Part shown: in pieces, positions 32,298 to 36,108 of the stretch | Position numbering within the stretch: the stretch's first letter is position 1 | Layout of the letters: every line of letters starts with the position of its first letter | Origin: Candidatus Bathyarchaeia archaeon | GTDB taxonomy: Archaea > Thermoproteota > Bathyarchaeia > 40CM-2-53-6 | Length of the DNA stretch: 64,000 nt | Assembly: GCA_050013255.1 (NCBI GenBank) | Contig: JBEKFP010000001.1 | Coordinates: 672,001-736,000, forward strand | Direction of reading: 5' to 3' | Made by a program: the position numbers and the translations under genes | Notes under the pieces: generated by a model | Databases searched by the model: none | What the model saw: only the letters and a program-made list of their open reading frames with translations | Told to the model about the DNA's origin: nothing

Positions 32298-33224
32298 TTG
32301 ATCGTTGCCTTAGCAGGAGGAGTTGGAGCAGCAAGATTCCTCGAAGGCCTAATTCGAGTAATTCCCCAGAAAGAAATCACGATCATAGGAAACGTCGGCG
32401 ATGACATCAACGTCTACGGCCTCCACGTCTCCCCAGACTTGGACATAGTCACTTACACACTCGCCGGCCTTTTCGACAAGAGAAAAGGCTGGGGCTTTCG
32501 AGGCGACACATTTCATTGTCAAGCGTTGCTTCGAAAGTACGGTTTCGAAACCTGGTTCAACCTGGGCGACCGCGACCTAGCAACCCACATCTATCGTACG
32601 GAAGAACTTCACCGAGGCAGGCGGCTGTCGGAGGTTACTGCAGACCTAGTTTCGCGTTTGGGGCTTCGAGTGAAGCTGCTTCCTGCAAGCGACGATCTGC
32701 TCCAAACATACGTACTTTCTGGAGGTCGACAAATGCACTTCCAAGAATATATGGTAAGACGAAAGACGAAGCCAAAGGTTCAAGGAGTAGTTTTTCGCGG
32801 CACTGAATCCGCCAAGCCAGCAAAACATGTTGTCGAATCGATTGCGAGAGCAAGGGGCATCATTGTCTGCCCAAGCAACCCGATTGTTAGCATCGGCGCA
32901 ATCCTCGCCGTTCGTGGCATCAAGTCCGCGCTCAGGAAAACTACGGGGAAGGTTGTTGGAATCAGCCCAATCATTGGCGGTAAGACAGTGAAAGGGCCAG
33001 CTGACAAATTGATGAAGGCAGTGGGGATCGAGGCGAGTGCACTTGGAGTAGCCGAATGTTACAACGGTTTCTTGGACACGCTCATAATCGACCGCCTCGA
33101 CAGGGAACTTGCACCAGACATCAAAGCCACCGGAGTTAAACCGATTGTAACGAACACGCTCATGAAAACAATGGCTGACAAAGTTCGTTTGGCGAAAGTT
33201 GCAATAAGTGAATTCAGTCGTTGA
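32298..33224 (+). CDS. cofD: 2-phospho-L-lactate transferase
   Basis: LAGGVGAARFL, VSPDLD, WFNLGDRDLATH, PSNPIVSI, KGPADK. Confidence 0.95.
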   Translation: MIVALAGGVGAARFLEGLIRVIPQKEITIIGNVGDDINVYGLHVSPDLDIVTYTLAGLFDKRKGWGFRGDTFHCQALLRKYGFETWFNLGDRDLATHIYRTEELHRGRRLSEVTADLVSRLGLRVKLLPASDDLLQTYVLSGGRQMHFQEYMVRRKTKPKVQGVVFRGTESAKPAKHVVESIARARGIIVCPSNPIVSIGAILAVRGIKSALRKTTGKVVGISPIIGGKTVKGPADKLMKAVGIEASALGVAECYNGFLDTLIIDRLDRELAPDIKATGVKPIVTNTLMKTMADKVRLAKVAISEFSR

Positions 33225-33886
33225 AAACTCGTTCACGTCAAGTGGGGCGTGTAGATGCTATAGTCCCCTTGAACGTTCTCAGAAAATCGAAAGCACGACT
33301 TTCACCCATCCTTAGGCCGGCTGAGAGAGAGCAATTAAGTGTTGCAATGTTGAAAGACGTTCTCTCCGCCTTGCGGATGGCGAAGCGGATTCATTCGGTA
33401 ACAGTTGTTAGCGCCGATAAGGGCGTGCGTAGAATCTGCAAGCGTCTCGGGGCTAGTTTTCTCTGGGAGGGGAGAAGGCGTGGCCTCAACAGGGGGGTCA
33501 AGTTAGCTGTTAGACATGCTCAGCGGAGAGGTGCTTCCTCCGTCCTTGTGATTCATTCGGATCTCCCGCTTCTCAAACCACTGGAAATTGACACGTTCCT
33601 CAAGCGGTCCGAGGGATGTTCAGTGGCGCTTACACCATCCAAAGACCGTGATGGAACTAACGCCCTGCTCATGAGTCCCCCACAGGTGATCCGCCCAGTC
33701 TTTGGCAAAGACAGCTTCCGCAAACACCTGTCGCTGGCCAGGAGGAGAAAAGCCCGCAGCAGAGTGTTGCTGTTCAATGGCATTGGTTTCGACGTTGACA
33801 CGCCAAGGGATCTCATTGAGTTGATGCGGCGGCCGTTGCGGAATGAAACCGGCCGAGTCCTACGAATGTTTCGAAAACCGACTTAG
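33221..33886 (+). CDS. cofC: 2-phospho-L-lactate/PEP guanylyltransferase
   Basis: KARLSP, SDLPLL, DGTNAL, FG.DSF..H, DVDTP.DL. Confidence 0.92.
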   Translation: MKTRSRQVGRVDAIVPLNVLRKSKARLSPILRPAEREQLSVAMLKDVLSALRMAKRIHSVTVVSADKGVRRICKRLGASFLWEGRRRGLNRGVKLAVRHAQRRGASSVLVIHSDLPLLKPLEIDTFLKRSEGCSVALTPSKDRDGTNALLMSPPQVIRPVFGKDSFRKHLSLARRRKARSRVLLFNGIGFDVDTPRDLIELMRRPLRNETGRVLRMFRKPT

Positions 33887-33948
33887 CGGTGCACCGAAAG
33901 ATACTCAGGGCAAAACAATTTAGAGGCAAGCGGGTGAGTTTGGGTGGG

Positions 33949-35311
33949 GTGTTTGAATTAGCATCGCCTAGGGAAAGCCACGATAAAGTGCTCCAGCTTC
34001 TGGAGCAGCATACTAAGTGGTTTTCAGAATCAATTCCGCTGATTGCATCGGAGAACGTTCCCAGCCCCGCGGTTCGCGAAGCTATAGTTTCAGACTTCGG
34101 GAATCGCTACGCGGAATAGGCTTAAGCCGATCAGGCTTAGGCCTCCGTAGGGATGGGTTGGGGAACGCGTATACGCGGGCTGCGTATACATAGACCAAGT
34201 TGAGAGGCTCTGCATAGACCTAGCAAAGGACCTATTCCGGGCCGAATTCGCGGACGTTAGGCCAGTCTCTGGGGTTTGCGCAAACCTCGTGGTTTACACC
34301 ACTTTCACAAACCCCGGCGACCGCATGCTCGCTTTAGCTATACCAAACGGCGGCCACATCTCGAGTGGGCGCAAAGATTTCTCGGGAACTGCAGGCTCGG
34401 TCCACGGCTTGGAAGTAGAATACTTTCCCTTCGACCGTCATGAAATGAACATCGACGTCGACAAGGCGAAGCAGAAAATCGAGAAGATGGTCAAGGAGGA
34501 GAATAAGCCGCCCAAACTTGGGATGTTTGGTGCAAGCCTCTTCCTCTTCCCCCAACCCCTGAAGGAGCTAGCTGAGTCATTACATAATGTTGGTGCGACC
34601 GTCGCCTACGACGCGGCACATGTTGCGGGGCTCATTGCGGGAGGAATCTTCCAAGACCCACTGAGGGAAGGTGCCGACGTAGTATGCCTGAGCACCCACA
34701 AAACGCTCTTCGGCCCGCAGGGAGGGGCGGTACTCTCCTTCGAGAAATACGCGGAGCAAATCAAGAAGGCAACGTTTCCGTCAAACACGAGCAACCACCA
34801 CCTGCATCACCTAGCTGGGAAAGCGGTTGCTTTCGCGGAAATGTTAGAGTTCGGAAAACAGTACGCTAAGCAAGTTGTGGCTAATGCCAAAGCCCTGGGT
34901 CAAGCGTTGCATGAACGAGGCCTTAACCTTCTGGGCGAGCACAAGGGTTTCACTGAGTCGCATCAAATCGCAGTCGACGTATCCAAGTATGGCTTGGGGG
35001 GAGACATGGAGAGAGCACTTGAAAGCGCCAACATAATCGTCAACCGCCAACTATTACCCGGGGACATTCAAGCGGGAAGGCACTACCAAAACCCAGGCGG
35101 CATCCGCATCGGCACCTCGGAAATCACCAGGATCGGGATGAAGGAGAACCAAATGGTCGAAGTGGCTGAGCTAATCAAGAGAATCGTCATCGACAAGCAG
35201 GACCCTAAGAAAGTGAAGGCCGATGTGCTAGAGTTTAGGAAAGATTTCCAGAAGGTTCACTACTGCTTCGAGAGCGCAAAGAAAGCCTACGAATACATCA
35301 AAGTACGGTAA
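33949..35311 (+). CDS. glyA: serine hydroxymethyltransferase, intron-interrupted: join(33949..34116,34151..35311)
   Basis: LIASEN, NRYAE|GWVGERVYAGC, GGHIS, DAAHV, STHKTLFGPQGG; start approximate. Confidence 0.93.
34117..34150 (+). other. 34-nt bulge-helix-bulge intron in glyA
   Basis: 11-bp stem with GATCA loop, bulge AAT, 4-bp helix GCGG/CCGT, bulge AGG; removal restores the frame. Confidence 0.85.
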
Positions 35312-35325
35312 TTGGTGGTTCGAGG

Positions 35326-36108
35326 ATAATTACGAATCCTAAGGTCACCGTCATAACTGGAGCGAGTAGCGGCATAGGTGCCGCACTAGCGAAAGAGCTG
35401 GGGGCCGGGGGCCACCGGCTAGTTCTCGGAGCCCGCCGAGAAAAGGAACTGAAAAATGTCGCAGCACATGCTGGAACTGAAGCAATCCCAGTCGTCACGG
35501 ATGTTACTCGCCGGCGGGACGTCGAACATTTACGCGATGTTGCAATTGAGAAATTCGGTCACGTTGATGTTTGGGTGAACAATGCGGGCCGCGGCTCTGG
35601 GAAGATTGTGATGGAGTTGACGGAGGCGGAATTGGATGAGATGATTGCTGTTAACCTGAAATCCGTTTACTATGGGATGCAGGCCATCGTTCCGCATTTT
35701 CAGCAGAGGGGCGAGGGACACCTCATCAACGTATCCTCCTTCCTGGGAAGGGTTCCTTTGGCAACCTACCGGTCCGCCTACAATGCGGCTAAGGCGGGGG
35801 CGAATATGCTAACCGCAAATCTGCGCATGGACCTGAGGACGAAATATCCACGGATACATGTTTCATTAGTTTTGGCGGGGTTCGTTGATACCGATTTTCA
35901 CAAAGTCGCAGCCACCCCTTTCCCCGTAAAGGCGGGAACCCGCGTCGGCGAAGCGGTGGTTCAATCCGCTGAAGAGGTCGCCGAGCAGATCGCATCCCTC
36001 ATAGAGCATCCAGTCGCGGAACTCTACACCAACCCAGGCCTCAGAGATCTTACGGTGCGATACTATCAAGACGTAGGCGCATTCGAAGAACGAATGGGCC
36101 AAAGATAG
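35326..36108 (+). CDS. short-chain dehydrogenase/reductase
   Basis: frame extends upstream of the called ORF to VITGASSGIG; NNAG, YNAAK; no ATG/GTG/TTG before the Rossmann motif. Confidence 0.85.
   Translation: MITNPKVTVITGASSGIGAALAKELGAGGHRLVLGARREKELKNVAAHAGTEAIPVVTDVTRRRDVEHLRDVAIEKFGHVDVWVNNAGRGSGKIVMELTEAELDEMIAVNLKSVYYGMQAIVPHFQQRGEGHLINVSSFLGRVPLATYRSAYNAAKAGANMLTANLRMDLRTKYPRIHVSLVLAGFVDTDFHKVAATPFPVKAGTRVGEAVVQSAEEVAEQIASLIEHPVAELYTNPGLRDLTVRYYQDVGAFEERMGQR

Follow-up and report, generated by a model that had tools for sequence, protein, structure and literature searches.

Does a serine hydroxymethyltransferase (SHMT) gene that is interrupted by a stop codon and a frameshift encode a functional enzyme, and if so, how is the interruption overcome? 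This question is raised by the glyA locus of a member of the Bathyarchaeia (genome G000, 2.46 Mb in 3 contigs). We analyzed a 64-kb stretch of this genome, contig C1:672001-736000, which we call the window. Here glyA lies in two pieces between cofC and a short-chain dehydrogenase gene, in an apparent cofD-cofC-glyA run headed by cofD, with 3 nt separating the end of cofC from the first possible glyA start (Table 1). The true start is uncertain, as there are four candidates (GTG 33889, GTG 33934, TTG 33940, and GTG 33949). Exon 1 reads ...SDFGNRYAE at its 3' end, where the last codon, GAA, encodes the Glu of the YAEG motif and is directly followed by TAG. Exon 2 opens with GWVGERVYAGC in a different frame. 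An earlier note on this DNA had described 34 nt carrying an in-frame TAG and a frameshift that interrupt the YAEG motif, and this description holds to the base. The Pfam SHMT profile is split exactly between positions 50 and 51 (YAE/GW), with no column lost or duplicated and 34 nt in surplus. Exon 2 matches the solved SHMT structure 4bhd ('SERINE HYDROXYMETHYLTRANSFERASE') with E = 3.5e-125, and its first residue aligns to residue 58 of E. coli SHMT, so that the break falls between the equivalents of Glu57 and Gly58. We take the Glu of this motif to be an active-site residue, following established knowledge of SHMT. A blastn-short search found no other copy of the 34-nt insert in the genome, so the insert is not a repeat.

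Table 1. Features of the glyA locus, in window positions, and genes for the splicing endonuclease, in genome positions
Feature	Position	Strand	Remarks
cofD (2-phospho-L-lactate transferase)	32298..33224	+	ORF; Pfam CofD, E = 4e-49
cofC (guanylyltransferase)	33221..33886	+	ORF; Pfam CofC, E = 1.5e-30
glyA exon 1	33889..34116	+	Pfam SHMT profile 4-50; frame open and conserved in all intron-bearing relatives
Possible weak outer helix h, 5' strand UCG	34104..34106	+	paired by RNAalifold with 34154-34156
Central helix H, exon strand GCGG	34111..34114	+	Ala codon and first G of Glu codon; pairs with 34145-34148
5' bulge AAU	34115..34117	+	predicted cut after 34116; unpaired in consensus fold
glyA intron (predicted)	34117..34150	+	34 nt; in-frame TAG at its start; length not a multiple of 3 (frameshift)
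Intron hairpin h', 5' arm AGGCUUAAGCC	34118..34128	+	11 bp with 34134-34144
h' loop GAUCA	34129..34133	+	sequence
Intron hairpin h', 3' arm GGCUUAGGCCU	34134..34144	+	pairs with 34118-34128
Central helix H, intron strand CCGU	34145..34148	+	pairs with 34111-34114
3' bulge AGG	34149..34151	+	predicted cut after 34150; asymmetric internal loop in consensus fold
glyA exon 2	34151..35311	+	386 codons and TAA at 35309-35311; Pfam SHMT 51-399, E = 3e-62
Two EndA subunit genes	G000:C2:171513-172085; G000:C1:301907-302470

[quoted passage not shown] Every base of the helix, bulges, and stem is present as the earlier note had given it, and its remark that the outer exon-exon helix is weak proved correct: we found one C-G pair beside the 3' bulge and a possible displaced helix of 3 bp, which shows no covariation beyond C/U-G (RNAalifold columns 2-4 with 52-54). 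Because this outer helix is weak, the 3' cut site would lie in an internal loop and not in a clean bulge. The motif thus differs from the strict hBHBh' form, which has flanking helices on both sides; here, h' has 11 bp and the outer h is weak. Judged from its sequence, the glyA motif is a relaxed BHB of the HBh' form, the form reported for the cbf5 intron (PMC2738675, PMC10485636). The rule for cbf5 is a cut between the second and third bulge bases (PMC2738675). A cut after the second base of each glyA bulge would join GCG GAA to GGA UGG and restore YAE-GW in frame. The predicted spliced junction is ...TACGCGGAA joined to GGATGGGTT..., with exon ends ...CGCTACGCGGAA brought onto GGATGGGTTGG..., and the peptide predicted across it is ...FGNRYAEGWVGER... 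The region folds better than shuffled sequences do (z = -3.5; 1 of 200 shuffles was as good). In this genome, the minimum free energy (MFE) fold is shifted in register by one and the BHB conformer lies at +4.0 kcal/mol; the conformer is 0.3-4.3 kcal/mol above the MFE across all 17 intron-bearing sequences that we identified. The weak outer helix and the register shift count against the BHB reading.

These sequences come from a comparison of glyA loci drawn from 40 related genomes, 80 species representatives, and metagenome contigs. In 17 distinct relatives, the Glu codon is directly followed by an insert of 25-34 nt, always at the identical phase-0 position, and every one of these inserts has a stop within 0-4 codons. 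A further 87 distinct homologues read through YAEGW uninterrupted, with the insert exactly absent. Same-site inserts in 17 distinct sequences, which stem from assemblies and studies independent of one another, already refute the idea that the interruption is an assembly or sequencing artefact, for which we found no supporting points and which we regard as having practically no chance of being correct. A self-splicing group I or II intron was likewise rejected, as the inserts form a single hairpin at this length and the ribozyme core of hundreds of nucleotides is absent.

When the 17 sequences were aligned, 88% of cells were paired in the BHB structure, and changes on both sides were seen in 12 of the 15 pairs; none of 500 shuffles reached the observed values. 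In a slid control, in which partners were moved by one to three columns, pairing fell to 33-49%. Double-sided changes occur among relatives in all 11 pairs of hairpin h', while pairing in helix H amounts to 97% across the 17 sequences, one of its pairs showing compensatory changes. Helix H varies from GCGG/CCGU to GCAG/CUGC and GCCG/CGGU, and the third base of the exonic Ala codon is matched by the intron throughout (GCG with C in 14 sequences, GCC with G in 2, and GCA with U in 1). This match between a codon third base and the insert is predicted only by an RNA helix formed between exon and intron. RNAalifold, run without a supplied structure, returned the central helix H, the 5' bulge, and the h' hairpin.

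The covariation bears on whether the 34-nt gap could instead be crossed by the ribosome, which would take off at the GAA codon that precedes the UAG and hairpin and land downstream. Phage T4 gene 60 is read by such translational bypass, and, like glyA, has a stop codon and a hairpin directly after the last sense codon; in this genome the glyA stop indeed directly follows the last sense codon, and a strong hairpin runs from the stop onward. Unlike T4 gene 60, however, glyA lacks matched take-off and landing codons, there being no GAA or GAG at the 3' border of the gap, and its exon-intron helix covaries. The position of the stop also varies, lying 2-4 codons into the insert in relatives. Bypassing gives no reason to expect that the exonic Ala codon should covary with the 3' end of the insert, or that 3-nt bulges should lie 4 bp apart, and we consider it extremely unlikely.

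Could the two pieces instead be a genuinely split gene, with an N-terminal peptide of 56-76 aa and an internally started C-terminal protein that assemble without any splicing? The public gene calls for the intron-bearing glyA of close relatives are indeed N-terminally truncated products of 328-392 aa, as a split gene would have it. (Other public calls, of 416-421 aa, such as P0027 and P0028, have a spurious N-terminus that results from out-of-frame reading through exon 1 and the intron.) Yet there is no start codon at the border of exon 2, whose first in-frame ATG, GTG, or TTG is 46 codons in. The break falls inside the YAEG active-site motif, and a split gene leaves the conserved RNA structure across the break unexplained. 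We see almost no likelihood that the gene is split in this sense.

Both glyA exons are, as judged by substitution rates, under strong purifying selection in intron-bearing species. Between these species, exon 2 gives dN/dS values of 0.04-0.05, at a dS of 0.3-0.7 that becomes saturated in more distant pairs, and exon 1 gives a value of about 0.1. These values weigh against the view that glyA is a pseudogene, killed by a small hairpin insertion after which an SHMT-like paralogue took over its function. That view would account for the in-frame stop and the frameshift, and the genome does hold a second, intact SHMT-like gene (G000:C2, ~662.7-663.8 kb; 47% identity); frameshifts of 1 nt in exon 2 of two intron-bearing relatives, G013 and G018, also speak for it. 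A decayed gene is at odds with exons that are open and conserved where synonymous sites are saturated, with dN/dS of 0.04-0.1, and with an insert held at one exact site with compensatory changes. The paralogue, moreover, has no YAEG, reading NRYTSPERFYMG where glyA has NRYAEGWVGERVYAG. Second SHMT-like matches, at 43-48% identity, are found in many of the relatives searched, including ones with intronless glyA, so the paralogue is not a replacement specific to intron carriers. We therefore hold the pseudogene account to be very improbable. The cell may depend on glyA splicing, the intact paralogue being the counterpoint.

Some details of these genes merit mention. The paralogue keeps the PLP-lysine context (STHKSFFGPQGG), and its apparent internal stops were a false lead, as they lie past its C-terminus. 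The single-base frameshifts in exon 2 occur in intron-bearing L026 (G013) and L028 (G018) and in intronless L029 (G019), one of them at a G run, and are probably assembly errors. Second introns in exon 2 of these three genomes were rejected, since the breaks are 1-nt indels.

Removal of a relaxed BHB intron calls for suitable enzymes, and the genome encodes both an endonuclease of the type that acts on relaxed motifs and the RNA ligase RtcB. There are two EndA paralogues, one of 190 aa with a catalytic-type (Y/H/K) region and one of 187 aa that is degenerate at those positions. The 190-aa protein is closest to the catalytic subunits of crenarchaeal heterotetramers (3p1z_B, 2cv8, 3ajv_B, and 2zyz_B), and its alignment passes through the loop region of 3p1z_B between the N-terminal strands. 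The two proteins are predicted to form a crenarchaeal-type alpha+beta enzyme of the broad-specificity (alpha-beta) type. The (alpha-beta)2 endonuclease is one of two types able to cut non-canonical introns (PMC5829648). The RtcB gene (G000:C1:110968-113778, minus strand; L114:2674-4116) contains a 481-aa intein in a single 1039-aa frame (Pfam Intein_splicing, E = 9e-12), so the candidate exon ligase would itself be protein-spliced. The Rfam tRNA model finds only 19 genes in this genome, although its completeness is rated at 100%. Of these genes, 17 are longer than 77 nt, with spans of 90-187 nt, which fits heavily interrupted tRNA genes and an intron-rich genome. ARAGORN found no tRNA genes in the 64-kb window, and standard finders probably miss most tRNA genes here because these are too interrupted.

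We infer splicing from the structure, its conservation, the selection on the exons, and the encoded enzymes, and conclude that the glyA insert is very probably a BHB intron spliced by the tRNA endonuclease. The archaeal BHB reading put forward in the earlier note is thereby supported by the geometry, the restored YAE-GW, 17 covarying relatives, 87 homologues without the insert, selection, and enzymes. On this model, glyA would be transcribed, probably within a cofD-cofC-glyA message. Close to the 3' end of the intron, CCGU would form a helix with the GCGG of exon 1, the 11-bp intron hairpin would stack on that helix, and the bulges AAU and AGG would be presented four base pairs apart. The (alpha-beta)2 endonuclease, which would also handle the many non-canonical tRNA introns of this genome, would cut after 34116 and 34150, and RtcB would ligate ...UAC GCG GAA to GGA UGG..., restoring YAEGW. 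The product would be a full-length SHMT of about 440-460 aa, and the 34-nt intron would probably be released as a circle. Any regulatory use of the intron is conjectural.

We looked for the spliced product in public collections. The exact 42-nt spliced junction is absent from the metagenome contig collection. A degenerate version of the junction pattern matched 18 metagenome contigs, most of 5-300 kb and three of 1.2-3.1 kb. In the 11 with readable glyA, the gene is uninterrupted and is placed among intronless relatives on the tree; we take the contigs to be genomic sequence of intronless relatives and rejected the idea that they are transcripts. In a set of 5.8 billion proteins, none that is full-length reaches 90% identity with this SHMT, and the full-length matches at 79-85% identity belong to intronless lineages. 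The missing junction and the missing full-length product count against the splicing model.

In a maximum-likelihood phylogeny built from 103 distinct proteins, at least 5 changes of intron state are required. Most members of one clade of 13 bear the intron, and an intronless pair is nested among them; three further small patches carry the intron (L039; L012 and L016; L020 and L086). The closest relative of intronless P0008, which is encoded on a 5.1-kb multi-gene genomic contig, is an intron-bearing species at 88% identity. Such a distribution is compatible both with an old intron that was repeatedly and exactly lost and with repeated gain at one site. With its clean presence and absence among close relatives, glyA offers a natural setting in which to follow how an enzyme-spliced intron is gained and lost.

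Are other protein genes of this genome interrupted in the same way? More BHB introns do seem to lie hidden, as the earlier note had guessed: cbf5, EF-2, and a B12-binding mutase subunit each hold a predicted one, which we verified at the sequence level. The cbf5 intron is 19 nt long (G000:C2:595047-595065, minus strand; ~1792-1810 of L113, which is G000:C2:593251-596544). It splits the catalytic Asp codon between G and AT (GTL-D-PKVTG); its helix is CCCU/GGGG, and its bulges are AGA and UAA. The cbf5 genes of the crenarchaeal orders Desulfurococcales and Sulfolobales, the only groups from which cbf5 introns have been reported, are interrupted at exactly this point of the Asp codon (PMC2738675). 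The EF-2 intron is 28 nt long (G000:C2:307095-307122, minus strand) and lies 21 codons into the gene; it has helix TCCG/CGGA, bulges AAU and AGA, and a 7-bp hairpin. The predicted join restores ...EQIR-N-MGIIAHVDHGKT, and the junction reads ...EQIRNMGIIAHVDHGKT. The mutase subunit intron (G000:C2:407640-407657, plus strand) is 18 nt long, in frame, and carries TAA. It lies inside an Asp codon, its removal would restore KPGL-D-GHDRG, and it has the full hBHBh' form, with a 5-bp exon helix (GCCCG/CGGGC) and central helix GGCU/GGCC. None of the four coding-sequence introns is located beyond the first ~80 codons or so of its gene (n = 4). They are situated at or beside codons of catalytic or ligand-binding motifs: the YAEG Glu, the catalytic Asp of Cbf5, the Asp of DxHxxG, and just before the P-loop of EF-2.

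The genome-wide BHB scan that the earlier note had proposed was a crude one. It sought motifs whose removal fuses two open frames, with a minimum of 12 codons for exon 1 and a maximum intron length of 100 nt, and was not exhaustive. The plain scan gave 19,578 candidates. An absolute coding-score cut-off lost all four true introns, while a frame-contrast score left 2,447 candidates and recovered the glyA, EF-2, and mutase introns in the lists inspected. The cbf5 intron was recovered by the plain scan only, as a start-codon filter dropped it from the inspected low-score list. Between them the scans thus recovered the four known introns, and among the candidates inspected nothing further was convincing; the others were gene boundaries or alternative frames within continuous genes.

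To our knowledge, cbf5 has for more than 20 years stood alone among archaeal coding sequences in its known need for the tRNA endonuclease; its pre-mRNA reportedly carries a BHB intron in Desulfurococcales and Sulfolobales (Watanabe 2002; Yoshinari 2006; Yokobori 2009, PMC2738675). Two archaeal mRNA substrates of this enzyme are on record, cbf5, in its coding sequence, and HVO_1309, in its 5' UTR (PMC2738675, PMC7714728, PMC10485636). The searchable literature describes no archaeal mRNA substrate beyond these, no protein-gene intron in Bathyarchaeota, and no link between SHMT and a BHB intron. The glyA and cbf5 introns have much in common. Both are short, lie in coding sequence at the codon of a catalytic residue, and have a relaxed BHB with the cut, predicted for glyA, between the second and third bulge bases; both also occur in hosts with a hetero-oligomeric EndA and show patchy gain and loss (Yokobori 2009, PMC2738675). 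They differ in that glyA encodes a central enzyme of C1 metabolism in Bathyarchaeia, whereas cbf5 encodes an RNA-modification enzyme in Desulfurococcales and Sulfolobales, and in that cbf5 splicing has been demonstrated by cDNA and in vitro cleavage while we infer that of glyA from sequence. By its predicted structure, the glyA intron works like the cbf5 intron and is not its orthologue; the orthologous cbf5-type intron of this genome is the one in its own cbf5.

Comparison with other systems sets the glyA intron further apart. The 5' UTR intron of HVO_1309 in Haloferax volcanii is also an mRNA target of the archaeal tRNA-splicing endonuclease, as is predicted for glyA. Unlike the glyA intron, however, it lies in an untranslated leader, leaves the frame uninterrupted, is handled by an alpha2 enzyme, and forms a canonical BHB (PMC7714728; PMC10485636). 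In Thermoproteota, the non-canonical and multiple introns of tRNAs are cut by an (alpha-beta)2 EndA with a crenarchaea-specific loop (PMC3241643, PMC5829648). These introns belong to the same HBh'/relaxed BHB class as that of glyA and are presumably cut by the same enzyme, but their host RNA folds into a cloverleaf, whereas that of glyA is a messenger in which excision would be read out as reading frame. Unconventional mRNA splicing is represented by HAC1 and XBP1, which are processed by Ire1 together with tRNA ligase or RtcB. As predicted for glyA, protein catalysts remove a short intron independently of the spliceosome, the frame changes, and a tRNA-splicing ligase joins the ends. HAC1 and XBP1 differ from glyA in using another endonuclease and twin stem-loops, and in being a regulated stress switch, no regulation being known for glyA.

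The predicted glyA intron adds a central metabolic gene, and a new lineage, to the very short list of spliced archaeal protein genes. Because a conserved glyA intron and three more introns occur in the same genome, these data suggest that protein-gene splicing is not an oddity of cbf5 and recurs within at least one large class of uncultured archaea. There is also a practical consequence, as truncated public gene calls can make the core enzyme SHMT seem broken or missing in metabolic reconstructions of Bathyarchaeia. A more speculative reading, which we think rather unlikely, is that the protein genes of Bathyarchaeia house a small set of tRNA-type introns (at least four here) that is still evolving and whose members are perhaps semi-selfish. 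Reverse splicing or recombination may bring such introns in, and they may persist at sites that tolerate no loss other than an exact one. Recombination with spliced cDNA may in turn remove them, and this would explain the 5' bias. If true, the dynamics of early eukaryotic introns would have an analogue here in which a protein enzyme does the splicing. Protein-gene introns might also couple C1 metabolism and translation to the capacity for tRNA splicing.

The short-chain dehydrogenase gene next to glyA was considered as another intron-split gene and rejected, since it shows an apparent N-terminal truncation without an intron. In this gene (window 35326-35340), no ATG, GTG, or TTG occurs before the Rossmann motif (KVTVITGASSGIG). 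The start position reads ACG here and in L003 and L028, and ATG in the closest relative, L002. The ACG is either a non-canonical start or the result of start-codon loss.
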